From a virus, in IMG/VR virus record IMGVR_UViG_3300029319_007985, positions 108,390 to 172,389 of that record: DNA of 64,000 nucleotides, one strand, 5' to 3'. The position numbers and the translations under genes are program-made. Positions 45,785 through 61,070 of this stretch are shown here, piece after piece; the stretch's first letter is position 1, and each line of letters opens with the position of its first letter. A model generated the notes under the pieces. The model saw nothing but the letters and a program-made list of their open reading frames with translations. It ran no database searches and was not told the DNA's origin.

Positions 45785-46823
45785 AAAAATAATTTATCCT
45801 ATCACAAATGTAGTCGACTTCTCTATCTTCTAAGAAAGGGTAAATTGGAAGGCTGACACATTGAGCCTGTATTAATTCTGCCATTGGATAGTGATTAGTC
45901 ATGTTGCTGTCTAACAAATATGCGTAATGTGTTCCTGTTTCAATTCCAGCGTTTGATAGAAAAGTTCTTAACTTATCTCGCTGATTTGATAACAACACAC
46001 ATTTATGGAAACTACTGAAAACACTACGTTCAACTTTGTGTAAAAATTGCAGTTTTGATAATCGTTTCTGATAACGTTTATATATTTTTTCACGCATTTT
46101 TTGGAACTTGTCAAACTTGTCTAATAAAAATAACATTTGGTTTGCATGGTCGTCACTTATAAAACTGTTATATCCATAGTCGAGATTGTCTCCTCCGTGT
46201 TTTCTAAGAGCAAGTACGTTTTCATAGATTTTAATACTGTCAGTCAGAACCATTCCGCCTGTGCCGAAGCAAGGCAAATTTTTTGATGGAGCAAAACTAT
46301 AAACACTGACGTTACCCAATTTTCCACTGGGCACTCCATGATACCAGGCTCCTTGTGACTGCGCGGCATCTTCAATTAAAGGAATGTTTCTATCATCACA
46401 AAACTTTCTTATACGATAGTAGTCAGCAGGATTGCCATATAGATGAACATAGATGACTGCATCGGCCTTAGTTATATTTTCCAATGATCCAATACTTCCA
46501 AATTTGTCAACATCTACATAAACTATATCTGCGCCTAATCTTTTGATTGCGCCTGATGTTGCCTTATAACTTAAAACTGGACACACCACTGTGCTTTTGC
46601 TATCAAGTCCTATCGAACGCATAGCAAAATATAAGCCATCAGTAGCACTTGCGACGCCAACACCAAATTTCCTACTGGCCCTACGTGCTACTTCAACTTC
46701 AAATTTTTTTGAGTACTGTCCTTCGAGGACTTTACCTGTGGTCCAGGCCTGTCTTGCTCTGTATGTCAGTCTCCAATTGTAGGCGTCATATAGCCTATCG
46801 ATACCGTTGAATTTTATTTGCAT
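45774..46823 (-). CDS. DegT/DnrJ/EryC1/StrS sugar aminotransferase
   Basis: VHLYG, IEDAAQSQG, SFAPSKNL and SLPIYP. Confidence 0.9.
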   Translation of the reverse strand: MQIKFNGIDRLYDAYNWRLTYRARQAWTTGKVLEGQYSKKFEVEVARRASRKFGVGVASATDGLYFAMRSIGLDSKSTVVCPVLSYKATSGAIKRLGADIVYVDVDKFGSIGSLENITKADAVIYVHLYGNPADYYRIRKFCDDRNIPLIEDAAQSQGAWYHGVPSGKLGNVSVYSFAPSKNLPCFGTGGMVLTDSIKIYENVLALRKHGGDNLDYGYNSFISDDHANQMLFLLDKFDKFQKMREKIYKRYQKRLSKLQFLHKVERSVFSSFHKCVLLSNQRDKLRTFLSNAGIETGTHYAYLLDSNMTNHYPMAELIQAQCVSLPIYPFLEDREVDYICDRINYFYGV

Positions 46824-48313
46824 TAGAAAACTTTGACTCCATATTTTTGTTCAAATGCTTTACCATCTGCCTTGTCATTCACAATCGGTTGCCCTTTGAT
46901 ATTGAGGCTGGTGTTCAATAATATAGGACACCCTGTCTTCTTTTTCCAAGTTTTCAACAACTGATAAAAGCCAGGATTATCGGTCTTACGCACCGTTTGA
47001 ACCCTTGATGTGCCGTCATGGTGTATTATAGCAGGAAAGTCTTTACCACGCACACACGCCGCTGTAAATTGCATGTAAGGGGTGTTTTTGACGTGTTTAG
47101 GTAGCCTAAAATAGTCGTTTACATCCTCTTCTAAGATGGCAGGAGCAAATGGTCTAAACTTTTGTCTTCGCTTGATTTGATTTACCAAGTCCTTTACTTT
47201 TGGCCCTCTTGGGTCAGCAAGGAACGATCTATTACCAAGTGCCCGCGGTCCAAACTCTGCCCTACCGTTTGCAACTCCACACATCATATTTTGTTCTAAT
47301 TCTTTGATGATACTATCTATAGGATACTCACCTTCTATGTTATGTCCGAGAAAAGGATGTTGCCAATTAAGGAACTGTTTCTCACTGGCGGCCACACAGC
47401 CAATACTTGATCCGGCGTCTCCCGGGTTTGGCATAATCCATATGTTATCAAAAAGTCCTAGTCCTGCAAGTTTAGAATTGGCGGCACAGTTCAATGCTAC
47501 ACCTCCTCCAAATACTAAATTGCGTTCTGCAAACATCAAACTTTTAGCAGGCAGATACGATGCCGCTCTGCTCCATAAATTTGCCAAAAGTTCTTCTGTT
47601 AAGGCTTGTATTGATGCCGCGATGTCCATAGGATCAGCATCAGGCATCCAGTTGCCTATGCCTCTGTGTAAATTGTGCGTTAACTCAAATGGCATATTGC
47701 TTTTTATAAACTCTCTTTGTATTTTGTCTTTGTATATAGGTTTGCCATAGGCGGCCATACCCATTAGGATATATTCTTCCTCAGCAGGTTTTAGTCCTAC
47801 CCTCTGTGTGAAAGCACTGTACAACACTCCTATTGAGTGAGGATATTTTATTCTTTCCTTAAGTTCCATCTTTCCTTGTGAGCCTAACCAAATACTGATG
47901 GTATCCCATTCACCAATCGCGTCAACTGTAAGGATCACACAGTCGTTGAAAGGACTAGTATAGTACCCTGTGGCGGCGTGTGATTCGTGATGTAGTACAT
48001 ATTGATCTATCCTATTGATTCCAAATTGCCTTAGATGTTGTAGAGGCATTTCTTTTGTATCAAAAGCAAGTCCATGCTGTCCTGCCCAAAACTGTCTAGT
48101 TTTTTTAAGTAATGGCTTTTCATAATAAACTATTTTGTCAAAAGGTCCATAAGTCATTGCTTCATCAACTATTGCCTGATTCAAGAAATGATCATTTTTT
48201 ATTTTACTATATCGTTCGGCGTGGGCGGCCCAAAGTATATCACCACCACCTTGTATATCAATAACTGCCATGGCGGCATCATGATTCATACAATTTATTC
48301 CTAATATTCTCAT
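46823..48313 (-). CDS. Carbamoyltransferase (NodU/CmcH/TobZ family)
   Basis: HDAA, ERYS, HHESHA, MGMAAYG, GGVALNC, EFGPRALGNRS, RPFAP and LNTSLN. Confidence 0.92.
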   Translation of the reverse strand: MRILGINCMNHDAAMAVIDIQGGGDILWAAHAERYSKIKNDHFLNQAIVDEAMTYGPFDKIVYYEKPLLKKTRQFWAGQHGLAFDTKEMPLQHLRQFGINRIDQYVLHHESHAATGYYTSPFNDCVILTVDAIGEWDTISIWLGSQGKMELKERIKYPHSIGVLYSAFTQRVGLKPAEEEYILMGMAAYGKPIYKDKIQREFIKSNMPFELTHNLHRGIGNWMPDADPMDIAASIQALTEELLANLWSRAASYLPAKSLMFAERNLVFGGGVALNCAANSKLAGLGLFDNIWIMPNPGDAGSSIGCVAASEKQFLNWQHPFLGHNIEGEYPIDSIIKELEQNMMCGVANGRAEFGPRALGNRSFLADPRGPKVKDLVNQIKRRQKFRPFAPAILEEDVNDYFRLPKHVKNTPYMQFTAACVRGKDFPAIIHHDGTSRVQTVRKTDNPGFYQLLKTWKKKTGCPILLNTSLNIKGQPIVNDKADGKAFEQKYGVKVF

Positions 48314-48693
48314 AATGTCTCTATGTATTTTTTAAGTTCTTTGTCCTGAACATCTGAAGGTATTATATTTTTGTAAAATATTTTATAACTGTCACTTCCA
48401 TATTTTCCTATGCCATGTAGGTCACTTGCTTCTTTACCGTTCCAGGTTAAAAATTGTTTGCTCATTTTCCTTAACCTTTTTGTTCTTACGTGCCACATGC
48501 CCAAAGGCTTTAGTAAATTTTCCTGTGTTTTTTTCCTACCGCGGAGAAACGCTTTGGCATTTGGGTACTTTTTGAATAACTTTGGCAATATTTCTTTTAC
48601 TTGTTTTCTATAGGTCAAATTCAAACATATGACGCCAACCATGTGTTGCCATTTATTTTTTACTTGCTGTTGCACCATTAGATCTTCTCTCAT
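48310..48693 (-). CDS. Minimal HhH-GPD DNA glycosylase, MBD4-like
   Basis: LN.T, KYP, LLKPLG and LHGIGKYGSDSY; start reassigned to 48693 (ATGA overlap). Confidence 0.75.
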   Translation of the reverse strand: MREDLMVQQQVKNKWQHMVGVICLNLTYRKQVKEILPKLFKKYPNAKAFLRGRKKTQENLLKPLGMWHVRTKRLRKMSKQFLTWNGKEASDLHGIGKYGSDSYKIFYKNIIPSDVQDKELKKYIETL

Positions 48694-48866
48694 TTTTTTA
48701 TTACCCATGCTCTATGATAAAAATTATCAACTTCCTTTTGTATTAATCCTTTTGCAAGTTTATTCGCTGATACTTCATCCATAGGCCCATATTCTTTTTT
48801 TGTTTTACTATCCATAGTATCCATGTCATTTGGATCCTTGTGTATGCCCTCGATCACATAATACAT
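48690..48866 (-). CDS. 58-aa protein (possibly DUF4170-like), not in the ORF track
   Basis: Translated by hand: MYYVIEGIHKDPND...EYGP...QKEVDNFYHRAWVIKK; coupled at both ends. Confidence 0.55.
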   Translation of the reverse strand: MYYVIEGIHKDPNDMDTMDSKTKKEYGPMDEVSANKLAKGLIQKEVDNFYHRAWVIKK

Positions 48867-48970
48867 TATTTGTAAATAAACGGGTCTTTTTTCTTAAGTT
48901 CTTTAATTCTTTTTCTGTGTGCAATTTCTTGCTTAATTTTAGAAATTAAAGATTTAATCCATTTTATCAT
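48866..48970 (-). CDS. 34-aa basic peptide (MIKWIKSLISKIKQEIAHRKRIKELKKKDPFIYK)
   Basis: AGGAGA RBS and TAATG coupling. Confidence 0.6.
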   Translation of the reverse strand: MIKWIKSLISKIKQEIAHRKRIKELKKKDPFIYK

Positions 48971-49772
48971 AGTTTCTCCTGTTTTCATTTATTATCGAAT
49001 TAAATTTGTCTTTCATTAATTTTACAGCATCTTTATGGGCAGAATCAAGTGGATGTGTGGTACCTCTTTCATATTCCTCCAACATTGCCCATTGGTTAAA
49101 CCCCATCATCCTTTCGCCAAAACTAAACCATTTGGTAATATCTATTTCTTTATAAAGTGATTGCATCAATGCGTCACGATGACTATGAGGCGTGTAATGG
49201 TTATAAAATAAACTATTGTCTGCTAGTGTAAACATAAAAGGAATATGATATTTTTCCAAAAAGTTTTGTAACCAAATAATTGACTTCCAACTGAGATAAA
49301 TCTCATGGTATTCATTAGCGGCGTATTTGTATAGACTGTTAGCAAACTCCTTGACTCCTGTTGTTGCAAGTTCTTCGCGTCTTTTCCTCCATATTTCTTG
49401 TTGCGGTTCTGATCCACCTAACTCTCTAAAAACTTCACCCTGTTTATCATCAGTGTCCCATGGGGTTATTGACGCCCAACGGGTGTCTTCTAATAAAGAG
49501 GATCTCGGCATCGCCCAATCATACCTTGATGGGAACGTCCACATCACTAGTACTGCATCGCAAATATTTTTACTAACATATGAAAATACCTTCCTTGCTA
49601 TTGCAGAATTTCCAATGCCACCCTGTGCCACAGAAAAATAATTTGCTCCATGTAGATCTGAAAGTCCTTTTGCCCATGTCTTATTTGAAGGAGGGGCATG
49701 TGGCGTGTTACAGTCACTTAATTCGTGTCCATACGTAAAACTACACCCACCTGATAAAATAATTTTATTCAT
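48954..49772 (-). CDS. SGNH-like protein
   Basis: GGCSFTYG, GIGN, VMWT..SR and TTHP. Confidence 0.7.
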   Translation of the reverse strand: MNKIILSGGCSFTYGHELSDCNTPHAPPSNKTWAKGLSDLHGANYFSVAQGGIGNSAIARKVFSYVSKNICDAVLVMWTFPSRYDWAMPRSSLLEDTRWASITPWDTDDKQGEVFRELGGSEPQQEIWRKRREELATTGVKEFANSLYKYAANEYHEIYLSWKSIIWLQNFLEKYHIPFMFTLADNSLFYNHYTPHSHRDALMQSLYKEIDITKWFSFGERMMGFNQWAMLEEYERGTTHPLDSAHKDAVKLMKDKFNSIINENRRNYDKMD

Positions 49773-50931
49773 AAATTTGTAAAACTTTATTTAAAAGAGG
49801 AAATACATCTCCAAAATTTTCATGTCTGTAAGCATCTGTTGTTAAAATCCTGTCGAGACGTTGTTTACGAATTTCTGGAGTATCTCTGTCCACAGCATTC
49901 ATAAAACTCAATGTGGGTTTAAAATCTGTCAACATTCCGTATCTGGTGTTTACTATATCTTTTACATTTTTAGGAAGTGTTTGTATGTTGAAATAATCCG
50001 GATCGAACAGTGTGTTGACATAAAAAAACTTAGGTTGATATTGTGCCACCCAAAATGCTATTTTGGCAAGACTAAAAATATTGAATATGCTAACTGTGGT
50101 ACAAATTTGGAACTCCATATTTGGTGTTGATCTTTGTTTCCATTTGACTAGATTGGCTCCAACCTCTCTCCAATTGGCTGGGTGTCTTTGATATTCAAAC
50201 TGTGGACCAATGTCGTCTATACTAAATGCTACTTCTACTCTTTTAAAATAGTTCCAAAGATCAAATATCTCTGGAGGTGGTAGTTGTGTGCCATTCGTGT
50301 TGTAATGAACATCTATATTTTTTGCAAATCCTTTTTCAACACAATACATTAATATTTTAAAGTGGTCTTTTATCATAAATGGCTCACCGCCTGAAAATTC
50401 GAAATATTCAACATGTCTTAGATCTTCTTTCAAGTCCTCAAAAAATTGTGGATTACGTTTAGGCCATCCGCCCTCTTTTAAATTTTTTCTTGCTACAGGA
50501 TTATCTCCATAGTCCAATTCTTCTTGTGCCCATTTACTTGAACTCCAAGATCCACATATTCTACATTTTAAGTTACAAACGTTACCCAATTTGAAATCAA
50601 TAAATTTTAGATTGGGTTTGCTGTCAGTGTTCCAATTAGATAAACTTTTTTTCATTTTATAGATGCTGTTCATTCTTTTAGATGTTTTTCCGGCTTCCTC
50701 TTCCTGCCAACAACTTTGACATCCTTTAGGCCGCTTTCCATCTTTAAATTGTTGCCTCAATTGGTTCATGTATTCTGTGTTCTGTATGTCATGTAAACTA
50801 TTTTCGTAAACTTTTACATTTGGCACACTGCCTTTATATAAACAACAAGGCGATGCACCGCCATTTACATCAACCTCTAGATGCGTCCAAGGTAAAGGAC
50901 ATACATTTGTTTTTAGATACTTTTCCACCAT
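49765..50931 (-). CDS. N-terminal twitch-domain radical SAM protein
   Basis: CPLPW...PCC...CQSC; CNLKCRIC; SGGEP. Confidence 0.88.
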   Translation of the reverse strand: MVEKYLKTNVCPLPWTHLEVDVNGGASPCCLYKGSVPNVKVYENSLHDIQNTEYMNQLRQQFKDGKRPKGCQSCWQEEEAGKTSKRMNSIYKMKKSLSNWNTDSKPNLKFIDFKLGNVCNLKCRICGSWSSSKWAQEELDYGDNPVARKNLKEGGWPKRNPQFFEDLKEDLRHVEYFEFSGGEPFMIKDHFKILMYCVEKGFAKNIDVHYNTNGTQLPPPEIFDLWNYFKRVEVAFSIDDIGPQFEYQRHPANWREVGANLVKWKQRSTPNMEFQICTTVSIFNIFSLAKIAFWVAQYQPKFFYVNTLFDPDYFNIQTLPKNVKDIVNTRYGMLTDFKPTLSFMNAVDRDTPEIRKQRLDRILTTDAYRHENFGDVFPLLNKVLQIYE

Positions 50932-52292
50932 TCTAATATCCTTTTGTCTTTTTGAAACACATCTTCTATGTTTGTGTTTCTTATCTCGTCTAATTTTTTA
51001 ACTCTTTCTTTTCCACGTTTCAATCCTTGTTTATATTCATTTGGAAACATTTCTTCGTAAGTTGGTTTCTCTTTCAAATCTTTTAAAGCGGCATAAAAAT
51101 AAACATGCTTTGATAATCGATGTTTATTTTGCTTTATAAAATCATCTACAGTATTATCTAGTATTTTCCTAGGCAGGCACATTGGCGACCATACGTTTTC
51201 CGAACTGAATCCAAAAACTCTTTTTGCTAAAAGTTCAACATCGAGACTTTCCGCGACATCAAGCATGTCTGATAGTCCAACAAGGCCTGGCAGTGTGATG
51301 GTCAAATCCATACGTAATTGTTTTCTATTCTTTACAAATTTTCTTCCGTGCTCCATATTTTTATACCATTGATCAAATTTTAGTCCTGTTCTTACATACT
51401 CGCCAACATCATAAGCACCATCTATACTTGCTAAGATGTTCCAGTGTGGATATTTTGACAAAATATCATCGAACAAATTCATGCCAAAGTAATTGATCCT
51501 ACTCATATTTGAATTATATCTAATAGACACTTTGTCCTGATATCCCAACTCAATAATCCTTTTCATTGATTCCCAATGTATTTTCCACATTAAAGGCTCT
51601 CCGCCACACCAATATATTTCTTGTATATTTTTTGATTCTACTGCTTCTGCAAACTCTTTCACTACTACTTTGTCATGGAACTTATCAATTTCTTTTTTGA
51701 TATCTTCACGCATCCACATCTGATTAGGCCTATCTGGATTCCACATGTTATGAAGTCTTTCTTCTGCTTCCCAACTTGAACTCAGCATGTCTCCACACAT
51801 TCTACATTTAAAATTACATAGGTTGTTGAATCTATAGTCCCAACTTGTAACTTTCATATCTGTATGCCCATCGTCTTTAGTTTTTGCGAAAGCCTCATCT
51901 ATATTTTTTTCAAACAAAGTATTAAAATGTGTTCTATATGTGGCCACTGATAGCAATTTGTGATTGCACACCTGGCATTGTGGAATTTCTTTTCCGGCCA
52001 TTAAGTCTACCCTAATCTTCTTCATGTAGTCACTGTTCCAATGTTCTTCCAAAGTATCCGGTTTGAATGGTTGTGTTTTTGATTTTGTGTCAATGTATTG
52101 CGTAAAAGTTTTACTATCCTCTCTACTAGAGCAACATAATCTTCTTTCCATTTGTGGAGACAGATAGGTATGTGTCCAAGGCGCCATGCAAAAAGTTTTA
52201 TTTCCTTCGGACGGTTTCACACGTTTATTAACATCGGCCACAACACCTTGCCTTTGCCAACGTTCTTCAGCAGTTGGAAATCTATCGCTCAT
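50913..52292 (-). CDS. N-terminal twitch-domain radical SAM protein
   Basis: FCMAPW...LCC...CQVC; CNFKCRMC; CGGEP; start reassigned to 52292. Confidence 0.88.
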   Translation of the reverse strand: MSDRFPTAEERWQRQGVVADVNKRVKPSEGNKTFCMAPWTHTYLSPQMERRLCCSSREDSKTFTQYIDTKSKTQPFKPDTLEEHWNSDYMKKIRVDLMAGKEIPQCQVCNHKLLSVATYRTHFNTLFEKNIDEAFAKTKDDGHTDMKVTSWDYRFNNLCNFKCRMCGDMLSSSWEAEERLHNMWNPDRPNQMWMREDIKKEIDKFHDKVVVKEFAEAVESKNIQEIYWCGGEPLMWKIHWESMKRIIELGYQDKVSIRYNSNMSRINYFGMNLFDDILSKYPHWNILASIDGAYDVGEYVRTGLKFDQWYKNMEHGRKFVKNRKQLRMDLTITLPGLVGLSDMLDVAESLDVELLAKRVFGFSSENVWSPMCLPRKILDNTVDDFIKQNKHRLSKHVYFYAALKDLKEKPTYEEMFPNEYKQGLKRGKERVKKLDEIRNTNIEDVFQKDKRILEWWKSI

Positions 52293-53562
52293 ACAACTCC
52301 TTAAGTTCAGGAAAAGTGTCAGTGACTTTTTCATTTCTAATTTTATCCAGTTTTGCCATACCTTCTTTGAATTGTCCAAAGTCCTTATATAAATCTCTAC
52401 GCATCATGTAATCTATTCCGCTTTCGAATCCTTTCGTTGCCCTAGTCAACTTGTCCTGAGGTTTAAGCCAAGCGATATGTTTTTCCATTTTTTCTTTTAC
52501 TTTTAATTTAAAGTCATTTGGCAAAAGATCAATCCTCTGCCAATAAGGGTATTGCAATAAATTAAAATTAAAATCCTGTGGCTTTAGTAGTCCTTTATCG
52601 ACCCAGTTTCTATGGAAGTCTGTAATGTGCCATGCGTTTATAAGTCCAACTGTAGAACTAATATAAAAGTCTACTTGCGGACATATTTCTAACATTCTTT
52701 TCCTATTTGCCAACACATCGCTCCACTTGGTTCCTTTTCTCATAAGTTCTGCACGTTCGCCCTCTGCGTCTAAACTTGCTCCTATTGATACCGAGTCAAA
52801 TTTGTTCCATAATTTTAAAACATCCATGTCTTTGAACTTTAACTTACTAAAATTTGTATTGTAAATTAATCTCACATGGTACATTTTTCTTCTATCTAAT
52901 TCCTTTAATATTCTATAGTGTTCTTCCATGATCAAAGGCTCACCACCTGCAAAGTAGAACTGCTCCACATGATCAAATTGTTTTAACATTTGATTCCATA
53001 TGTCATCACTACTTCTACCCACTCTCATAACTTTTGCATGATTTGGAGGAGCACCAGTAAGTTTTTTATGATCTTCATACCAATTTGAACTGAACCATGT
53101 GCCACAACTCCTACACGCTAGATTACATAGATTGCTAAACCTAATATCCCAATATTTTATAACGAAGTCAGCGGTGCCATCTTCCTTTGTTTGATCCACC
53201 ATTCCTATGTTATGTCCAAAGTGTTTGTTTGAACTTAAACGTAAACTAAAGAAACCAGACTTTTCTTGGTCATAGCATTTTGTACACTGCTTACTAGACT
53301 TATTGTTTAGCATATTGACACGCATCTGTTTCATGTCTTTGCTGTTGAAAACAGTCTCCATTGAATCTTTGTTGAGATCACCAACTGGATATTTGTCGAG
53401 AGCAAAACAACATGGGTATGCTCTTCCATCTGGAAATGCATGTAAGTGTAGCCATGGCATCATACAAAAGGTGTCACTGTCTATAAGCAATTCTTTTTGC
53501 CTAGCAGTCATGTCTTTTATTTTTATTTTCTCCGGCTCTTTAGCGCCATAATCATATGCCAC
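52282..53562 (-). CDS. N-terminal twitch-domain radical SAM protein
   Basis: FCMMPW...PCC...CTKC; CNLACRSC; AGGEP. Confidence 0.88.
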   Translation of the reverse strand: MAYDYGAKEPEKIKIKDMTARQKELLIDSDTFCMMPWLHLHAFPDGRAYPCCFALDKYPVGDLNKDSMETVFNSKDMKQMRVNMLNNKSSKQCTKCYDQEKSGFFSLRLSSNKHFGHNIGMVDQTKEDGTADFVIKYWDIRFSNLCNLACRSCGTWFSSNWYEDHKKLTGAPPNHAKVMRVGRSSDDIWNQMLKQFDHVEQFYFAGGEPLIMEEHYRILKELDRRKMYHVRLIYNTNFSKLKFKDMDVLKLWNKFDSVSIGASLDAEGERAELMRKGTKWSDVLANRKRMLEICPQVDFYISSTVGLINAWHITDFHRNWVDKGLLKPQDFNFNLLQYPYWQRIDLLPNDFKLKVKEKMEKHIAWLKPQDKLTRATKGFESGIDYMMRRDLYKDFGQFKEGMAKLDKIRNEKVTDTFPELKELYER

Positions 53563-54895
53563 GATACCATTCTCCTATTATTGGAAAAGTCTTTTCGAAA
53601 TCTTTTCCTTGTCTTATGTCGTATTGACTGTAAAACGTCTTGAAGTCTTTTTGTAATTTACTTTGTTCGGCCGCACCTGCGTGTGGTGTTTTCACAACAT
53701 CTAAATAATCAATTAATCTTTGTATGTGATTAATTTCCATTTCCTCCAAAAATTTTCTATTATTTTTTAAAAACTTATCCATGTTTCCTTTGAATAAATT
53801 TCTCAGATCGTCTGGTAGCACCAATGGTGATTGGAAACTTGGAAATCTCAAAATGTTTAGTGTAAAATTAATAGTCGGGCCGTAGATTGCACTTGCAGTT
53901 TTGAACCAAACCATTTTTTCTAAAAACTCCGGCAATGACTCTAAGCATAATGCATTAATTGTACACATATTGTGGATCTCGGATGGTACTTTGTCCACCA
54001 TCATGTTCAACAGATTTGAATGCCATTCTTCATAATCTAAACCATCTCTAATATATTCTGCTTGTTTAGACGTTGCTTCACAACTTGTATATAGATGAAA
54101 ATTTTTAAATCCTTTAAGTTTATTTTTAAACCTATCAATAATACTTTTCTTTGCACCAAGATTGGAATTTATTGCTAAACGCATACCAGGTCTCATCTTG
54201 TCACCTTGCGTTTCTATCCAGTCTAACAAACGCCATAGATTAGGAGACATCATTGGTTCACCTCCTGTGATACGTAATTCGTCTAGTGTTTTGTGTAGGT
54301 CACTTTCCCACCACTTATAGAACGCCTCGACATAAGGATTGGTCTCATCCTTTTTGTATGGCTCCGCTGAATCATGTGCATGTGTGAAGTGGTTACGTCC
54401 ATCAGACATTAGGTTCATGTATGGTCCTTGATTTTTGATATTGTTTGCCCACGTGGTACTAAAAGCAGGATTACAATATGTACAAGCAAACTGACACACT
54501 CTATCAAAAGCAATTTCTAATGTTCTCAAGTTGAAATCTTTTTCATAGTCTGATTTAAAGGCATCATTCAATTCTTTGTCTGTGTAAATTTTAGATTTGT
54601 ATACCCTGTCACTAATAGCATCTCTGCCTATGTCCTCAATCTTCCAACAATATTCGCAACCTTTAGGCCTTTCGCCACACTGCATTTGCCTACGTTGCTC
54701 TTTCTTTTGTTTTGTATTGTGTATAGCACTAGGATTTTTTTTGATCTCTTCCAAATCAATTTTGTGAGGAAGAGGATGATGGCAACTTGTAGTCATTCCT
54801 GACCCAAGCCATATTGTGGCATTGTACCATTTTGCGCCACAGAAACTTGCCGACTTTGTGTCTAGTTTTTGTTTTTTAAACTCTAAATCATTCAT
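53552..54895 (-). CDS. N-terminal twitch-domain radical SAM protein (AKW/CHH subtype)
   Basis: FCGAKW...SCHHP...CEYCW; CQFACTYC; TGGEP. Confidence 0.88.
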   Translation of the reverse strand: MNDLEFKKQKLDTKSASFCGAKWYNATIWLGSGMTTSCHHPLPHKIDLEEIKKNPSAIHNTKQKKEQRRQMQCGERPKGCEYCWKIEDIGRDAISDRVYKSKIYTDKELNDAFKSDYEKDFNLRTLEIAFDRVCQFACTYCNPAFSTTWANNIKNQGPYMNLMSDGRNHFTHAHDSAEPYKKDETNPYVEAFYKWWESDLHKTLDELRITGGEPMMSPNLWRLLDWIETQGDKMRPGMRLAINSNLGAKKSIIDRFKNKLKGFKNFHLYTSCEATSKQAEYIRDGLDYEEWHSNLLNMMVDKVPSEIHNMCTINALCLESLPEFLEKMVWFKTASAIYGPTINFTLNILRFPSFQSPLVLPDDLRNLFKGNMDKFLKNNRKFLEEMEINHIQRLIDYLDVVKTPHAGAAEQSKLQKDFKTFYSQYDIRQGKDFEKTFPIIGEWYRGI

Positions 54896-55635
54896 TTCTT
54901 CCAGTCCTTCTTAAAGTTAACAAGTTTTTCATATTCATTCTTTGGTGGCTCAATGCTTGATCTGTACATTATATCTTTTACCCATTTATAATGTGTCAGC
55001 GGCAAAGGATGTAAATCCTCAGGCTTTAAAAATTCCTCAGGATAATTTTCATTAGCATAATCATCTAGACCACCATATTTTTTATAAAAAATAAACTTAC
55101 TCCAGTCTATTTTTTTATATAATGCTCTTTGTCCGTTTGACATTTTATTTTTATCGTGCATTATAATATGCCCTCTGTAACACATCATTGCATAATCAAT
55201 TTTTTCCTTTTCTAGATACATCTGGGTGAACAAAATTCTATCTAGCATTCGTACATCATTTTGTCTTTCATTTTGGAACCATCTTACATAGTATTCGTGT
55301 TTATCTTTATGATAGTGTCCTCCGTAAAACCTGTTCCAATTGAAATCTTGATCCCATCTCGAATATGTGACTAGTTCATCCTTTTTTAAATTTTCATCTA
55401 TACTATCGTGTATAATTTCATATCTATTTGTACCAGACCACATAATATAAACTTTTTTAATATCTGCAAACTTGTTCACAGCATTATACACAGATCTCAT
55501 TATTGTTTCATTTGAACTACCGGATGATCCAACATTTATGATGTTGCCACTTGGTTCGAACCATTTAACAAAATTAGGCCAACACGCCCATTTGTACTTT
55601 GTAAAACTACAGCCTGCTGTTATAATATTACTCAT
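54892..55635 (-). CDS. SGNH-like protein
   Basis: AGCSFT, GSSN, IMWS..NR and DLHP. Confidence 0.7.
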   Translation of the reverse strand: MSNIITAGCSFTKYKWACWPNFVKWFEPSGNIINVGSSGSSNETIMRSVYNAVNKFADIKKVYIMWSGTNRYEIIHDSIDENLKKDELVTYSRWDQDFNWNRFYGGHYHKDKHEYYVRWFQNERQNDVRMLDRILFTQMYLEKEKIDYAMMCYRGHIIMHDKNKMSNGQRALYKKIDWSKFIFYKKYGGLDDYANENYPEEFLKPEDLHPLPLTHYKWVKDIMYRSSIEPPKNEYEKLVNFKKDWKK

Positions 55636-57020
55636 GCGTTTTTACACTCCTGCCAAAAATCTATCATTTCAGGAAAAGTCCTTTCGAAACTAGTGCCTCT
55701 TCTACGATCGTGTTCGTTAAAAAATGCGTAAAAATTTCTTTTTTGCTGTGCGTTAGCGTCAAAATTCTTGCGCCAATAAGCAAGATTGCGAAGCATTTTT
55801 TGAATCTCAAAATCCTTGTATACAGCGTATTGGCTCCACTCGGGGTCTTTGAACTCACCTTCCTGAAATTTTTGCATCATAGATATGTTGTCTTGATGTA
55901 CCTGCTGATAACTTTCAGGCAACATTGTTATCTGTTGCCATGCTGGTTGTCTTAGCAATGGTATGTCAAACCAAACCCTTTGGTATGTGGTGCTGAACCT
56001 CTGTCTCAACTGTCGAATATATTCTAACAGTTTGTCAAGGCTTGTCACACTCAAGTTGTTGTATGTTATTATAAAAGTAACGCTGTTTCTTACAGGTATT
56101 CTCTCTAAAAATTCCTCCACAGTGTCCTGGAAGTAGGCCCAATTTAGTCCATGGCGGATGTATTCTGCTTTTTCACCAAACGCATCTACACTAACAAATT
56201 GCATGAAATGTTCAACGTGCTCGTCCAAGCATATTCTCTTGACCATGTCAAAATATTTGTTTTTTAATTTGTAATCAGGCGGACACATGTTGCTGGTCAC
56301 ATTCAAGTGTAGGTCCTTTTTAGGATTGTCTATGACCCATTGCAATACTTTATAGGTGTTTGTGTCCATTAATGGTTCTCCGCCTGTCATCCTGAAGTGT
56401 TTCAAGTTTTTATAAAGCGTAGGCCACCAACGCCAGAAGGCTTCTCTGTATGGATTGTGTTCTCTATTTGGTATTGGCTTCCTATCTCCATCAAAATGTT
56501 CTGGAGCGTTGTGGGCCGGAGATGTGGGATATTGGCCATATCGGTCTATCTCCTGTGCCCACGTTGTCGAGAACTGTGGCGAACAGTAACTACACTTGAA
56601 ATTACAAGCGTTGTTAAAGTTGACCTCAACATATCTCGGCGTCCATTCTGAGTCCATAGGTTTTCCAACAATTGACTCAAAATCTTGTATTGCCCAGGGT
56701 TCACCTGAACGGTAAATTCTATCTGACGTGCCACCTGTGTCTTCGATGTTCCAGCAATAACTACAACCTTTGGGTCTGTCGCCTGCCAGCATCTTTTGTC
56801 TTTCTTCAATTTTTTGTGCTGTGTTGTGCAGTGCGGCTGGATTTTTATCCAATTGTGTAGCGTCTATCTTGTGTAGAGGAGGATGGTAACAACTGTTAGT
56901 CATGCCGTTGGTCAAGTGTAGACTGACCTGATTCCATTTAGCAAGACAGAACGTAGGAGACACTGTGTCTAGTCTTTTCTTGGCAACTTCTGCCGCTTTC
57001 TGATACGCACTAGTTTTCAA
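55632..57020 (-). CDS. N-terminal twitch-domain radical SAM protein (AKW/CYH subtype)
   Basis: FCLAKW...SCYHP...CSYCW; CNFKCSYC; TGGEP. Confidence 0.88.
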   Translation of the reverse strand: MKTSAYQKAAEVAKKRLDTVSPTFCLAKWNQVSLHLTNGMTNSCYHPPLHKIDATQLDKNPAALHNTAQKIEERQKMLAGDRPKGCSYCWNIEDTGGTSDRIYRSGEPWAIQDFESIVGKPMDSEWTPRYVEVNFNNACNFKCSYCSPQFSTTWAQEIDRYGQYPTSPAHNAPEHFDGDRKPIPNREHNPYREAFWRWWPTLYKNLKHFRMTGGEPLMDTNTYKVLQWVIDNPKKDLHLNVTSNMCPPDYKLKNKYFDMVKRICLDEHVEHFMQFVSVDAFGEKAEYIRHGLNWAYFQDTVEEFLERIPVRNSVTFIITYNNLSVTSLDKLLEYIRQLRQRFSTTYQRVWFDIPLLRQPAWQQITMLPESYQQVHQDNISMMQKFQEGEFKDPEWSQYAVYKDFEIQKMLRNLAYWRKNFDANAQQKRNFYAFFNEHDRRRGTSFERTFPEMIDFWQECKNA

Positions 57021-57897
57021 GGTCTTGTACTCCTCTATTGATGTGGGTAGGTTGTGTGAACTTAAAAAACTTGCTACTGCTGGCGTCCAACTCAGGCACG
57101 TTTAAATTTAGTTTCTGTTCGATCGAACCTTTGTATTCCACAAGTTCTTTGTCAAGATGTGACTTGTGTATGAATTCAAAACTTTCTTCTAGTATGTCAA
57201 GATCAAGATGACACGGTTCATCAATGATGGCCTGATCATAACAGCCTGCCCTTGCGCCTAGCATTGCATATCTGCCATACTCAACGTCTGCACCCACAGC
57301 CATCCAAGTCGTGAGTTTGGTGAGGTTACTGTGTGGAATCATATGAGAGAACTGTGTTGGGTCGACCCTTTTGCCTTGATCCATACTGAGTTTCACGCCT
57401 TCCCTGTATCCTGCTAGGAATGCCTGCTTGGCCGATGTGTTTATCACCGTGGTTGAATAACAATTGTGTAGATTAGCATGTGGCACGGTCCAGCAAAAAT
57501 CTTTTTTGCTCTGCTCATCCAAAGCATTTTCGTGAGTCTTCATTGCCAGGCATGTATCTTTATGCCAACCAACCAGGCCACCGTTGCCATAAACCAGTCC
57601 GTTAACACTGTTCTTGCCACGCCACCTATGCACGTGTTTTGGATCAGTGACGGACCAGTCCAAGATATTCAATAAAAAACTTTCATCTATGATGTTGTCA
57701 CCGTCGACACTTATGAAAAACTCTGTTTCGGCCTTGTGTGCCGCGGCCTTGTGTGCAGAATCAAAACCCTTAACTCCATGCACTCGCTTGGCCCATGGCA
57801 CTTTACTCAAAAGGTCTGCAAAATTTTCCTCACAGTTTGGCTCTTTGTAACTGATAAAAACAAAGTCAAGTTCAGAAATTTTTATTTTGTCTGCCAT
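57010..57897 (-). CDS. GT-A fold glycosyltransferase-like protein
   Basis: FISYKEP, AHKAAA, VDGDN and YGNGG; start reassigned to 57897. Confidence 0.65.
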   Translation of the reverse strand: MADKIKISELDFVFISYKEPNCEENFADLLSKVPWAKRVHGVKGFDSAHKAAAHKAETEFFISVDGDNIIDESFLLNILDWSVTDPKHVHRWRGKNSVNGLVYGNGGLVGWHKDTCLAMKTHENALDEQSKKDFCWTVPHANLHNCYSTTVINTSAKQAFLAGYREGVKLSMDQGKRVDPTQFSHMIPHSNLTKLTTWMAVGADVEYGRYAMLGARAGCYDQAIIDEPCHLDLDILEESFEFIHKSHLDKELVEYKGSIEQKLNLNVPELDASSSKFFKFTQPTHINRGVQDLEN

Positions 57898-58190
57898 TTG
57901 AATGCTTTGTCTCCTTCCGTTGTTGGCCAAAATGGATTATTCTCATAAAATTTTATGCCATCAGATGATTCTACAAGTTGTGCTTGACGTTGTTCTGGTG
58001 GCACATTTGGTTTACGGCATATGATTGCTCCGTTGGGTCCTTTTTGGCAAAAATAATTGCTTTCTCCAACTCTTTGTATTTCAAGTTTCTTAGGCAGATC
58101 AACTTGTAAACTTTGTCCTTCGATTTCAACAAAGTGTTTCTTCTCTGCCTTGTCCTTAAATTTTTCTAATGCTTCAAAAAATCCTGGCAT
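57882..58190 (-). CDS. Hypothetical protein
   Basis: Coupled ORF within the operon. Confidence 0.5.
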   Translation of the reverse strand: MPGFFEALEKFKDKAEKKHFVEIEGQSLQVDLPKKLEIQRVGESNYFCQKGPNGAIICRKPNVPPEQRQAQLVESSDGIKFYENNPFWPTTEGDKAFKWQTK

Positions 58191-58968
58191 CTAATTTCTC
58201 CATAGTGTCCTTTTCGTGATAGTGCCATATCCTGGACTGTCTGTGTCCTCCAAGATATAAGGCATCATCCTGCTTATAGGTTTGTAAAAAATCATTATTT
58301 TTGTATACCGGGGGCAGTCCATTGACATCATTTTTATTATGCACAAATTTAAACCAGTCATAGTCTACTTTCATAATTTGTAATGGATCTAACATTTTAT
58401 TGGCTAGTGCATACACAACATCAGTGGTTGGCTCCTCGTCAAAACAATTTTTTAGGCAATGATCTCTCACATAGTTCCAATTTGTTGTTATGTTCTTACA
58501 AACAAGGTAAAACTGCATGGACCAAATGCTTTTGCGAAAGTAATGTAAGCCTGAATAAACATTTGGCAGGTCATTCTGATCAAAAAGTTTTCTGTATTTT
58601 GTGTTTTTTACTACGTCGTCTTTGTAGTTTCTGCAGTCATAGGAGTGAACCATGTCCCATTGATGCAGGTAGTTCCACCACCAATCTGTTGAACTTGTGA
58701 AAATCATGTCTGCTTCTAATTTTATAGTGTGTGTGAATGGCGACAACTTAAATACTTGCCATTCTTTCTCGAATTTGCCTTTTGAATCTCCCTCAAATGG
58801 CACAGTTTTGTCGACATTTTTGAATTTGTCTATGCTTTGTTTGTCGGTGATAACACAGATCTGATTATGTCTGTTATGACTTTTGATACTTGACGCCAGT
58901 TTGTTACTAGCCTCAATGTAAGCATCTCCAAAAGCCAACCAAACATAACCTCTATCCGACATTAACAA
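58174..58968 (-). CDS. GT8-like glycosyltransferase
   Basis: LASSIK, SPFTHTIKLEAD and YSGLHYF. Confidence 0.65.
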   Translation of the reverse strand: MLMSDRGYVWLAFGDAYIEASNKLASSIKSHNRHNQICVITDKQSIDKFKNVDKTVPFEGDSKGKFEKEWQVFKLSPFTHTIKLEADMIFTSSTDWWWNYLHQWDMVHSYDCRNYKDDVVKNTKYRKLFDQNDLPNVYSGLHYFRKSIWSMQFYLVCKNITTNWNYVRDHCLKNCFDEEPTTDVVYALANKMLDPLQIMKVDYDWFKFVHNKNDVNGLPPVYKNNDFLQTYKQDDALYLGGHRQSRIWHYHEKDTMEKLDARIF

Positions 58969-59716
58969 ACTCCTTATCCATTACGTGTACATCAGTGTTA
59001 GATATGATGTTAATTTTTTTGTTGTATTGATATATGACCGAATCATCTGTGACATCAAGCACGTCAAATTCATGAGGCAACATGTTCATAGGAGTTGGAA
59101 TATACTGTACTGAAGATAAATGTCCATTCAACTGGTGTAGTGCGATTGCAAAAGCATAATCATTCCTGTAGTTCTTGAACTTTATACGGTATAGATTCCT
59201 AAAGTGCGAATAATTTTGTTGGACATGTTTGATCATGTCAAAAATAAGTTTAGCATTTTCACTTTTTTCAAATATGACCACCGTTGCCCACACAATTGGC
59301 AATATGCTTTCAAGTTTGCCTTGTATCCGATCAAGTCCTGTGATGTCATTGACTTTATTGTGTAACAAAAAGTCATAGTCAGTGTTCAAAAGTTCCAACA
59401 GGTTATCAGTGAAACACATATAGTCACAGTCAAGCAGTATAGTTTTTTCATATGGACTGTAATCAAAAGCATTGGCACGTTCCATGTTGTACCATGGAAT
59501 GTTTTTGCCTCTGTAATATCTGAAATTGTTTGTGTTCTTATTGACAATCTTGTAGTTGACATCTACAAAATTTAAATCTTTACGAGTGTCGGCGTCTGTA
59601 ACAACTGTCACAGGCAGTTTCAAATTTTTTTTGATAAGGTCTATAGACCTTTTTGCAAGTCTGCTGTATTTCGTTTGCTCAGTGTCGAAGCAATATATTA
59701 AAACACCTGCGTCCAC
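58952..59716 (-). CDS. GT8-like glycosyltransferase
   Basis: SPYEKTILLDCDY, WATVVIF and RNDYAFAIA. Confidence 0.7.
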   Translation of the reverse strand: MDAGVLIYCFDTEQTKYSRLAKRSIDLIKKNLKLPVTVVTDADTRKDLNFVDVNYKIVNKNTNNFRYYRGKNIPWYNMERANAFDYSPYEKTILLDCDYMCFTDNLLELLNTDYDFLLHNKVNDITGLDRIQGKLESILPIVWATVVIFEKSENAKLIFDMIKHVQQNYSHFRNLYRIKFKNYRNDYAFAIALHQLNGHLSSVQYIPTPMNMLPHEFDVLDVTDDSVIYQYNKKINIISNTDVHVMDKEFVNVG

Positions 59717-60083: not shown

Positions 60084-61067
60084 TTAGTCGTTGTTAACGA
60101 TTGCGTTGGATACAGCAGTTGTAGATATGTTAGTGTATACTGTGCTCAATCCTTGTGCTGTTGTAGGATCAACTGTGTGGAAAGCAACGTCAGTTGGGCC
60201 TGCCGCTTCTGCCTCTACGGCAACTCCACTTGTGTTGTTGTTAGTGTAGTCAGTTCTTGTTGAATCGTTTAGCAATATAGAAACTTTTAAAGTTACTTGG
60301 TCACCTTTGTTGCCTCTTGCATCAGCGTGTTCACCGTTGGCCTTTGCTTCAATTTTGATTAGAATGTCACCATCGTACGTACCACCTGACTCTGTTACTG
60401 TCATTAGTGTCTGATATGAAGTTGTTAGATCAAAGTAACCTAAGTTTTGATCTCCACCTAAGGTTTCGCCTGATCCAGATCTGGTGTTTGTGGTTGCTCT
60501 CAAATCAAAATTTCCTAAGGCCGAAATACAGTTTCCTACTGAGGTGTCCTTACCTGTGGAATTTGTTGCTCCATTAGTAATTTTTACTCTTATTGTGCCG
60601 CCAGCGTTGAAAAAGAATCTTGCTTCATCACCGCCTTGGAAGTTAAATCTCTGTTCAACTATGTGTGATGTATCAAAAACAGCAGAGGCCACAATTGATG
60701 CGTCCTCACTACCTTCTGAAACCGCTGTTGCACTAGTTGATCCACCCTTGACTTCATTTTCAAGAGATAAAAGATCTGCCGCCAAAGCACTCACAACTGC
60801 AATTGGATCACCTGCTGTTCTTGCCGCAGTTGATGATAATGAGTCGTTTGTGTGATTTGCCACGTTGTCCATGGCTGTGAATAATGAATTCCATTGTGCC
60901 GCTGTAACAGTGTCACCTGCTCCAACAGTTGCTAATTCGGTTTGACCTAGGCCTACGTTACCTGTCCCTGTGCCCTGTATAAAATTTATTCCAAATGGAG
61001 ATGAACTATTGTTTACAAAGTTATTATATTCGTCATCTAAAATTGTATCACCTGTAGTATATGCCAT
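60084..61067 (-). CDS. Virion structural (tail/baseplate-associated) protein
   Basis: MAYTTGDTI; Thr/Ser/Gly-rich; ARFFFNAGG motif. Confidence 0.65.
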   Translation of the reverse strand: MAYTTGDTILDDEYNNFVNNSSSPFGINFIQGTGTGNVGLGQTELATVGAGDTVTAAQWNSLFTAMDNVANHTNDSLSSTAARTAGDPIAVVSALAADLLSLENEVKGGSTSATAVSEGSEDASIVASAVFDTSHIVEQRFNFQGGDEARFFFNAGGTIRVKITNGATNSTGKDTSVGNCISALGNFDLRATTNTRSGSGETLGGDQNLGYFDLTTSYQTLMTVTESGGTYDGDILIKIEAKANGEHADARGNKGDQVTLKVSILLNDSTRTDYTNNNTSGVAVEAEAAGPTDVAFHTVDPTTAQGLSTVYTNISTTAVSNAIVNND

Positions 61068-61070
61068 TTT

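Follow-up and report, generated by a model that had tools for sequence, protein, structure and literature searches.

The window (the whole 64,000-nt stretch analysed, from a widespread ocean phage) carries at 49765-57020 an array of five translationally coupled minus-strand genes, R1–R5, encoding radical SAM (rSAM) proteins with an N-terminal twitch (N-twitch). These comprise R1 (55632-57020; 462 aa) and R2 (53552-54895; 447 aa), both of subtype 2, and R3 (52282-53562; 426 aa), R4 (50913-52292), and R5 (49765-50931; 388 aa), all of subtype 1. Two SGNH-type genes accompany them on the same strand, namely the accessory S1 (SGNH-like; 54892-55635; 247 aa) between R1 and R2, and S2 (SGNH-fold; 48954-49772; 272 aa) behind R5, and neighbors within this R1–S2 array overlap by 4-19 nt. 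The open frame of R4 reaches 52379, and its likely start is the ATG at 52292: starting there, R4 would share 11 nt with R3, in line with its orthologs, whose starts lie 8-14 nt ahead of the R3 stop. An earlier sequence-only reading had described five overlapping rSAM genes with two interleaved SGNH genes, with which the open reading frames, the family matches to NF033640, and the S2 fold all agree. It had also delimited the unit at 48954-57020; this holds for the array, but the conserved unit is larger, extending from fiber genes at ~63.9 kb, past GTa, GTb, p306, and the array, to a small peptide, a carbamoyltransferase, and a DegT gene (~44.5 kb).

All five rSAMs matched the NCBIfam N-terminal-twitch model NF033640 (N_Twi_rSAM) above its curated cut-off of 170 bits, with scores of 300-412 bits (E 3e-89 to 3e-123; R1 335.5, R2 300, R3 411.7, R4 308.6, and R5 368.5). 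The same genome encodes an A-type Fe-S carrier and two further family members, and the matches of all seven copies span the full model length. The sixth, R6 (20171-21319, plus strand; 256 bits), confirms the copy previously noticed at 20171, while the seventh, R7 (G000:C1:45177-46202; 288 bits), lies outside the window. R6 is followed by a GT1 gene (21319-22485) and an NDP-sugar epimerase gene (22442-23479), both identified with Pfam; this context is unrelated to the array cassette, and the four relatives found do not share it.

In alignment A1, the CxxxCxxC motif (C119, C123, C126), the GGEP motif (G181-G182-E183-P184), and the twitch cysteines are invariant, and all three are likewise invariant across the 98 sequences of alignment A4. 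The four-cysteine twitch precedes the CxxxCxxC core in all seven copies, and the two N-terminal cysteine-cluster subtypes recognized earlier reappeared in A1: C.AKW...SC[YH]HP...C.YCW in R1 and R2 (C.AKW...SCYHP...CSYCW in R1), and C..PW...CC...C..C in R3–R5. Pfam Radical_SAM was found in the array rSAMs, and the N-terminal Pfam SPASM domain cleared its threshold in R3 with 46 bits and in R5 with 35 bits (residues 11-75), and fell below it in R4; R1 and R2 had no Pfam SPASM match, although their aligned twitch cysteines are present. Judged by these motifs, R1–R5 are intact N-terminal-twitch rSAM enzymes, with predicted cluster and SAM motifs complete. An AF2 model of R3 reached a pLDDT of 95.9. 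In the fold search, Z scores were tied between BlsE (13.3), anSME (13.1), CteB (12.8), and SkfB (12.3), with the sugar enzymes DesII and AprD4 at 10.5 and 9.1, so that fold comparison does not separate sugar-acting from peptide-acting relatives. Our literature and database search found no characterized member of NF033640, in keeping with the earlier remark that the N-twitch family has no known substrate; the family, about 9,500 sequence clusters in size, is already catalogued, as a database entry only.

S1 and S2 are 23% identical, both begin with G-C-S-F-T, and have an invariant Ser, Asn, and His in common (alignment A2). The catalytic-type residues of S2 are the block I Ser11 (in GGCSFT), the block III Asn55 (GN), and His246 of the block V D-S-A-H (DxxH); S1 keeps the Ser, Asn, and His, with Pro in place of the Asp of DxxH. 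An AlphaFold model of S2 (pLDDT 86) had mostly SGNH/GDSL proteins as its top PDB matches (CE2, TesA, Est2A; E 2e-4 to 5e-3, TM ≤0.66 on the target), carbohydrate esterases among them, which points to a predicted SGNH fold for a protein that matched nothing in Pfam, NCBIfam, or PHROG. S1 scored 26.4 bits against Pfam DUF6071, just below the cut-off of 27.

Upstream of the array, also on the minus strand, lie p306 (57010-57930), GTb (58174-58968), and GTa (58952-59716), immediately preceded by the Thr/Ser/Gly-rich fiber-like genes g03 and g02 (60084-62663), of which g02 has tail-fiber PHROG matches and a weak Peptidase_G2 chaperone-domain match. GTb (phrog_1903) resembles GT8 and nucleotide-diphospho-sugar transferases, with Atlas scores of 0.97-0.98 to "nucleotide-diphospho-sugar transferase" (Nucleotid_trans) and GT8 clusters, and GTa is its paralog (hhalign of A9 and A8, probability 97.5%, E 7e-12). 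The p306 product, which has a DGD motif and a mean column identity of 71% (alignment A3), is always encoded immediately before R1; its Atlas clusters were all viral and gave a weak lead to GT2 (0.87), and hhalign profile comparison found it unrelated to GTb, with no GT-A tie. None of the three had a Pfam or PDB sequence match. A minimal form of this arrangement, GTa-GTb-p306 and one R1-type rSAM, is found in the cultured Ralstonia phage RsoM2USA, in which RsoM2USA_350 (41% identical to p306) also immediately precedes the R1-type rSAM RsoM2USA_349 (35% identical to R1).

Downstream, S2 forms a constant sub-module with an unannotated 34-aa basic peptide (48866-48970, minus strand) and a NodU/CmcH-type carbamoyltransferase, CmT (46823-48313, minus strand; Carbam_trans_C 177 bits; Carbam_trans_N 155 bits, a match beginning only at model position 131). 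The peptide, which ends in KKKDPFIYK and had no detectable Pfam family, is present in 51 of 51 loci extending that far, with 15 invariant columns (alignment A6), and its KDPFIYK tail was seen in at least 120 IMG/VR stretches. A predicted complex of CmT with the peptide scored 0.54 against 0.01 for the best control. Of 80 solved complexes, 58 reached the mark on this scale, and so did 2 of 110 mismatched pairs, with passing scores of 0.60 or less limited to 7 of the 80 solved complexes and both of those mismatches. With at least 83% of contacts in common between runs and a partner pLDDT of at least 60, the prediction lends weak support to a CmT-peptide pairing. The saxitoxin carbamoylation set includes sxtI (carbamoyltransferase), sxtJ and sxtK (small proteins), and sxtL (GDSL), and the phage sub-module is similar in having an SGNH/GDSL protein and a small conserved protein ahead of a carbamoyltransferase; it differs in its glycosyltransferase and rSAM context, and its peptide has no detectable Pfam match. 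Between peptide and CmT sits an HhH-GPD glycosylase-like gene (48310-48708, minus strand; Pfam HhH-GPD 25.4 bits, below cut-off), an optional insert. The unit ends with a DegT/DnrJ/EryC1 sugar aminotransferase gene (45774-46823, minus strand; Pfam 218.9 bits) and u439 (44465-45784, minus strand), which had no Pfam or PHROG family match and whose C-terminal half is distantly p306-like (hhalign E 3e-4), RsoM2USA_348 bridging the two.

Next, we evaluated the conservation and age of this gene set. Gene order was constant in all 58 related IMG/VR loci, running fiber, GTa, GTb, p306, R1, (S1), R2–R5, S2, 34-aa peptide, and carbamoyltransferase. S2 was present in 51 of 51 loci extending to its position, and S1 in 16 of 55 related loci. 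R1 orthologs from 55 loci were 67-84% identical, and R3 was represented by >120 90%-identity clusters at at least 81% identity. Within the array, by contrast, pairwise identity between rSAMs was only 18-28% (A1). A Bacteriovoracaceae chromosome encodes an eight-gene N-twitch rSAM array flanked by L21, Obg, and RsfS, and R1–R5 each grouped with one member of this array (supports 0.83, 1.0, 0.74, 1.0, and 0.999); the R2 clade includes L085 and L074 members, and the R4 clade L085_7410 (support 1.0 for both). Because of this low identity, the five separate old ortholog groups, and their bacterial counterparts, the array rSAMs do not represent a recent viral expansion; phylogenetic grouping indicates instead that the subfamilies are older than the phage and moved together. 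The idea of an "array of paralogs" expanded within the virus was hence right about the five family members and wrong about their local origin. The proposal of a dedicated multi-step pathway fared better: with five ortholog groups in constant order across 58 of 58 loci and recurring in the bacterial array, the gene set behaves like one.

Several lines of evidence bear on its substrate. A natural CmT-N-twitch rSAM fusion (L128:1060-3864) has GT1, DegT, Zn-ADH, amidohydrolase, and ABC-2 transporter genes as neighbors, a second natural protein fuses GT2 to an rSAM (P0191), and CmT adjoins rSAMs in loci L086, L087, L099, and L141. From both fusions, the bacterial GT1, DegT, and ABC-2 neighbors, and the minimal RsoM2USA set, we infer a sugar-based substrate. 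No recognizable glycosyltransferase was found alongside the Bacteriovoracaceae array, which is the nearest to the phage set. Freshwater pelagimyophages have been reported to lack LPS-type sugar genes and rSAM genes alike (PMC7029224).

We give about an even chance to the reading that five functionally distinct rSAMs work in one coupled cassette that builds and edits a sugar-based product for fibers or envelope. In such a pathway, the putative GT-A-type transferases GTa and GTb, probably with p306, would assemble the product from nucleotide sugars, and these may be supplied or adjusted by an epimerase/dehydratase, a DegT aminotransferase, and a PIG-L deacetylase encoded nearby. Each rSAM would cleave SAM at its CxxxCxxC cluster and abstract one particular hydrogen from the sugar product, with the fully Cys-ligated twitch cluster carrying an electron, and the outcome could be dehydrogenation, epimerization, dehydration, or a C–C bond at a set position. 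The SGNH-fold proteins would then attach or strip acyl groups, and CmT with its 34-residue partner peptide would carbamoylate a hydroxyl. Judged by gene position, the product would most likely decorate virion fibers or the infected cell's envelope. A more specific version, which we regard as tentative, is that the rSAMs edit sugars already attached to the phage's Thr/Ser-rich tail fibers, the glycan being subsequently acylated and carbamoylated.

It is unlikely, though conceivable, that the rSAMs act directly on protein or peptide, either epimerizing or cross-linking residues of the adjacent fibers or maturing a RiPP-like product, with the sugar enzymes working in parallel. CteB, SkfB, SuiB, and anSME are among the best fold matches (Z 12.2-13.1, tied with the sugar enzymes), and the auxiliary 4Fe-4S cysteine motifs of the Pfam SPASM model appear to be shared with them; in the phage proteins, however, the domain order is permuted, and neither a dedicated precursor peptide nor a recognition domain was found, Pfam and NCBIfam scans of R1–R5 revealing no PqqD-like leader-recognition domain. 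Many bacterial N-twitch members carry fused TPR, Sel1, or ankyrin repeats, which are protein-binding, but sugar-handling enzymes, too, often bear TPR arrays, and the GT2 and CmT fusions point to hydroxyl- or sugar-bearing substrates. The position of the cassette immediately behind fiber genes and the near-invariant 34-aa peptide within it would both suit a protein or peptide substrate. Yet this peptide, the only conserved small ORF of the cassette, co-occurs with the carbamoyltransferase and seldom with an rSAM: its tail is followed by CmT in 55 of 90 stretches, whereas only 7 of 41 have an N-twitch rSAM upstream. The peptide thus tracks the carbamoyltransferase and not the rSAMs, and a RiPP reading is weaker for it.

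We consider it rather improbable that, instead of decorating a macromolecule, the cassette produces a small molecule that stays free and acts on host or competitors, for instance a cofactor or a pseudo-oligosaccharide resembling an aminoglycoside or aminocyclitol. DegT, a Zn-ADH or rSAM dehydrogenase, CmT, glycosyltransferases, and a PIG-L deacetylase are all parts of aminoglycoside pathways (compare BtrN/BtrS, NeoA, and TobZ), and L128 includes an ABC-2 exporter. The phage cassette, by contrast, has no exporter, neither a cyclitol synthase nor another enzyme that would form a scaffold was recognized, and a constant place behind fiber genes, in the 58 loci and in RsoM2USA, better suits a structural role. 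A cyanophage grouping of DegT-family, rSAM, and amidinotransferase genes (PMC12801897) also favors a small molecule. Finally, hypermodification of phage DNA, for example with a sugar-bearing or carbamoylated base, is highly improbable: R6 does lie beside a GT1 gene and the cassette includes the HhH-GPD-like gene, but the R6 neighborhood is not conserved, the HhH gene occurs in just 7 of 58 related loci, the cassette is linked to fiber rather than replication genes, and the bacterial homologs accompany polysaccharide-type genes.

Compared with characterized sugar-acting enzymes, the array rSAMs have the radical SAM core of the same structural subgroup as BlsE, BtrN, AprD4, and DesII, the pathways of which also include DegT-type aminotransferases, glycosyltransferases, and a TobZ-type carbamoyltransferase. 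The auxiliary cluster domain is C-terminal in these four and N-terminal in the array, identity is only 10-18%, five to fifteen copies stand in each locus, and the genes are phage-borne beside fiber genes. Such cassettes are known from the literature only through passing mentions. One paper notes "radical SAM cassettes" within the pelagimyophage host-recognition cluster (PMC7029224), another 12 rSAM genes with an A-type Fe-S carrier in a T4-like phage genome (PMC5332604). These phages resemble ours in kind, in the genomic place of the rSAM genes, and in their sugar genes and A-type Fe-S carrier; the two papers devote one sentence each to the rSAM genes and offer neither a family assignment nor orthology, fusions, or a mechanism. 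To the NF033640 entry itself, this analysis adds five constant subfamilies in one phage cassette, their counterparts in bacteria, and fusions with CmT, GT2, and TPR. If the rSAMs do edit sugars on the tail fibers, the virion glycan would be radically rewritten (keto, epimerized, deoxy, or C–C-linked), tuning host recognition or shielding the fibers, and this would represent the first function for the N_Twi_rSAM family and the first case of a virus encoding the radical-based editing of a glycoprotein.

The array belongs to a tightly packed single gene run on the minus strand (44.5–63.9 kb of the window in the ORF listing), the window itself being the final 64 kb of a 172-kb IMG/VR record with a CheckV completeness of 47%. 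In the direction of transcription, this cassette opens with a Gly-rich protein (g01), two Thr/Ser/Gly-rich, fibre-like proteins (g02, with tail-fibre PHROGs and a weak chaperone-domain match, then g03), and a small helical protein (g04), followed by a glycosyltransferase-like pair (GTa, GTb), a 102-aa ORF (s102), and p306, the protein directly before the first radical SAM (rSAM) gene. The five rSAM genes (R1–R5; 49765–57020, −) come next, with the SGNH-like gene S1 between R1 and R2 and a second one, S2, after R5. Downstream are a 34-aa ORF, a 58-aa ORF (48690–48866, −) coupled to the stop codon of the former, a small HhH-GPD glycosylase-like gene (48310–48708, −), and, as the last genes, a NodU/CmcH carbamoyltransferase (CmT), a DegT aminotransferase, and a 439-aa protein without assignment (44465–45784, −). 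A PIG-L deacetylase and an NDP-sugar epimerase/dehydratase are encoded on the plus strand, convergent to the cassette. Most cassette genes gained no annotation from PHROGs, and the 58-aa ORF gave only a weak DUF4170 match (18 bits).

The sequence-only reading had described R1–R5 as N-terminal-twitch rSAMs of two subtypes with a sixth copy elsewhere in the window, and profile searches and alignment bore this out. R1–R5 scored 300–412 bits over the full NCBIfam model NF033640 (N_Twi_rSAM; cut-off 170 bits), which was also passed by the copy at 20171–21319 (+) and by a seventh copy outside the window (G000:C1:45177–46202, whole-record coordinates). Pfam identified Radical_SAM in R1–R5 and an N-terminal SPASM domain above threshold in R3 and R5. 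The CxxxCxxC motif, GGEP, and the twitch cysteines were kept in all seven copies, R1 and R2 forming one subtype and the remaining copies the other (alignment A1), and these cysteines stayed invariant or nearly so once 91 diverse relatives were added (alignment A4). The neighborhood of the sixth copy, which includes a GT1 and an epimerase, is not kept in the four relatives found. For the SGNH genes the same reading held in part: S1 and S2 have in common a GCSFT motif, a GN block, and a C-terminal His, the full DxxH being present in S2 and its Asp absent in S1 (alignment A2), and the top PDB matches of the S2 model (pLDDT 86) were exclusively SGNH/GDSL enzymes, including the carbohydrate esterases CE2 and Est2A and the thioesterase TesA; no curated sequence model, however, recognized either protein. 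PDB sequence-profile searches with S1/S2, p306, GTb, and GTa returned no usable match.

The array had also been read as an expansion, which is contradicted by its conservation. The paralogs are just 18–28% identical to each other (A1), and an IMG/VR scan with R3 recovered orthologs at 72–86% identity in 58 loci, all with the same order: g02, g03, g04, GTa, GTb, s102, p306, R1, (S1), R2–R5, S2, the 34-aa peptide, (HhH), and CmT. Within this otherwise constant order, S1 was found in 16 of the 55 loci covering its site, the HhH gene is an optional insert limited to 7 loci, and the 58-aa ORF was seen in 1 of 58. In a tree that included bacterial arrays, R1, R2, R3, R4, and R5 each grouped in a clade with a single gene of the eight-gene array from Bacteriovoracaceae UBA6144 (L085), with supports of 0.83, 1.0, 0.74, 1.0, and 0.999, respectively. 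Flanked by genes for ribosomal protein L21, Obg, and RsfS and by unassigned genes, the L085 array is chromosomal. The low identity and the bacterial orthologs together led us to reject a recent local duplication, and since each phage copy pairs with a bacterial array member, the five subfamilies must predate this phage lineage and travel together. Judged from sequence relationships, such a traveling set is consistent with five different jobs.

Both the family and the cassette are widespread. R3 matched at least 7,395 clusters at 90% identity and 9,561 representatives at 50% identity (E up to 1e-3), as well as 407 stretches among genomes (one per species), chiefly from Bdellovibrionota, Elusimicrobia, Bacteroidota (Chitinophagaceae, Saprospiraceae), and Polyangiaceae. 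Several of the matches labeled as MAGs (L067, L070, L071, L088) are probably phage DNA in bins, since they contain the entire cassette including the fibre genes. One Elusimicrobia MAG, MJ-2014_bin-0981 (L109, L115, L119, L129, L131, L133, L138), carries dozens of tandem 700–1200-aa genes, each encoding ~600 residues of TPR repeats and an N-twitch rSAM, a very large lineage-specific expansion. Against the phage collection, a megablast search with the region gave no match and tblastn only four distant records; the Vibrio phages K566 and K567 have three or four tandem rSAM copies. Near-identical DNA (71–93% of sampled words) was detected in 13 marine metagenome runs from six studies (2014–2025), two possible source runs not being counted. 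In metatranscriptome libraries from three studies, contigs (some of them mismatch-free) overlie parts of R2–R5 and their neighbors, although DNA carry-over is possible in such libraries.

Several lines of evidence bear on the substrate. N-twitch rSAMs occur in two fusions to other enzymes: a 934-aa Bacteriovoracaceae UBA6261 protein consists of a complete carbamoyltransferase and an N-twitch rSAM (L128:1060–3864, −), and a GT2 is fused to an N-twitch rSAM in another match (P0191). The former lies next to a GT1, a DegT, a Zn-ADH, an amidohydrolase, and an ABC-2 transporter; another bacterial locus (L099) combines an SDR, a methyltransferase, a carbamoyltransferase, and a classical SPASM rSAM; and CmT homologs adjoin rSAMs in four further loci. 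In the phage cassette, GTb resembles GT8/nucleotide-diphospho-sugar transferases (Atlas 0.97–0.98) and GTa is its paralog (hhalign 97.5%). The virus-only p306 is very highly conserved (mean column identity 71%) and has a DGD motif; profile comparison with hhalign yielded no link between p306 and GT-A. A degenerate p306-like domain without this motif seems to be present in the 439-aa protein, RsoM2USA_348 bridging this protein and p306 (44465–45784, − and L269:15371–16072). A minimal version occurs in the cultured Ralstonia jumbo phage RsoM2USA, where GTa, GTb, and another ORF are accompanied by p306 at 41% identity, only one R1-type rSAM at 35% identity (E 4e-98), and an additional p306-like gene; SGNH protein and CmT are both absent. 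Finally, LPS-type sugar genes and rSAM genes are both missing from freshwater pelagimyophages (PMC7029224). Based on the fusions, the bacterial neighbors, the phage transferases, the RsoM2USA minimal set, and this literature, we favor a sugar-based substrate handled by the glycosyltransferases, the rSAMs, and CmT.

Direct modification of a protein or peptide by the rSAMs appears unlikely, yet it draws on the further fusions of N-twitch rSAMs to long TPR arrays, Sel1 repeats, ankyrin repeats, or a second rSAM, and on the presence of peptide maturases among the structural matches. The AlphaFold model of R3 is a confident single body (pLDDT 95.9), and its core (residues 133–393) falls in the SPASM/twitch–viperin–MoaA neighborhood by Foldseek and VIA-align, with Z scores of 13.3 for BlsE, 13.1 for anSME, 12.8 for CteB, 12.3 for SkfB and viperin, 12.2 for SuiB, and 11.3 for MoaA; these matches are generic radical SAM ones restricted to residues 133–393, outside of which lies the twitch domain, an N-terminal permutation of the usual domain order. 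As the scores are tied, the fold is uninformative on a sugar versus a peptide substrate. A cassette making a free aminoglycoside-like metabolite seems more doubtful still, and a role in DNA hypermodification is highly improbable.

The 34-aa ORF (48866–48970, −; MIKWIKSLISKIKQEIAHRKRIKELKKKDPFIYK) was considered as a RiPP precursor and rSAM substrate. It was found in all 51 related loci reaching its site, with its last 16 residues invariant, and a pattern scan detected its KDPFIYK-stop tail in at least 120 viral stretches. Among those with enough flank, a carbamoyltransferase was the next gene in 55 of 90, while an N-twitch rSAM lay ≤6.5 kb upstream in only 7 of 41; the RiPP reading was rejected, as the peptide tracks the carbamoyltransferase. 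Complex prediction for CmT and the peptide gave weak support (score 0.54 vs 0.01 for the best control; ≥83% of contacts common to the runs, partner pLDDT ≥ 60), where 58 of 80 solved complexes and 2 of 110 mismatched pairs pass the mark for such predictions, but only 7 of the 80 solved complexes, and both passing mismatches, do so with a score ≤0.60. We take the peptide to belong to a carbamoyltransferase sub-module (S2, peptide, CmT), as its partner or tail-piece, rather than to be an rSAM substrate. The same tail also terminates longer Cys-rich (...CRCEHCNCP...KKDPFIYK) and Tyr/Trp-rich proteins (L145, L148, L166, L214, L260, and others), downstream of which no carbamoyltransferase was detected by the BLAST criterion. 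In some related phages (L013, L024, L025, L060), a second, divergent copy of the peptide, ending in KDPYLYR, KDPYEYK, or KDPYVYK, precedes the first by a few hundred bases.

Under the favored sugar-based reading, each rSAM would reductively cleave SAM and then abstract one defined hydrogen of the sugar-based product, with the fully ligated twitch cluster serving in electron transfer. BtrN and anSME use their auxiliary cluster in this manner. The outcomes may be keto, epimerized, deoxy, or C–C-linked sugars, after which amination, (de)acylation, and carbamoylation could follow through DegT, the SGNH proteins, and CmT. The phage genome encodes at least 11 radical SAM superfamily genes and, outside the window, an A-type Fe-S carrier (G000:C1:77208–77516, +; PF01521, 59 bits), IscU not being found in it; rSAM-rich T4-like phages were reported to likewise have an A-type Fe-S carrier and many rSAM genes (PMC5332604). 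The place of the cassette behind Thr/Ser-rich fibre genes suggests the virion as the putative target, and the host O-antigen has been proposed in a publication (PMC7029224). The T4-type late promoter TATAAATA had no match on either strand of the 64-kb window, with 5.15 expected from shuffles; either the phage avoids this word or its late motif is a different one.

The N_Twi_rSAM family is already cataloged and such cassettes are mentioned in two papers (PMC7029224, PMC5332604), while our literature search found no paper characterizing the family. New here are the one-to-one orthology of R1–R5 with a bacterial array, the CmT–rSAM and GT2–rSAM fusions, the pairing of p306 with an R1-type rSAM that is common to a cultured phage, and the counts tying the 34-aa peptide to the carbamoyltransferase. 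The family is very large (as the clusters at 50% identity matching R3 indicate), with five or more copies in abundant ocean phages, and, if the proposed activity is true, radical SAM enzymology would gain a family whose auxiliary domain is permuted. The minimal set of RsoM2USA (one rSAM, p306, and two glycosyltransferases) makes the question experimentally accessible in a cultured phage. Should the cassette act by editing a virion glycan or one on the surface of SAR11-type hosts, phage–host recognition in the ocean would gain a new layer.
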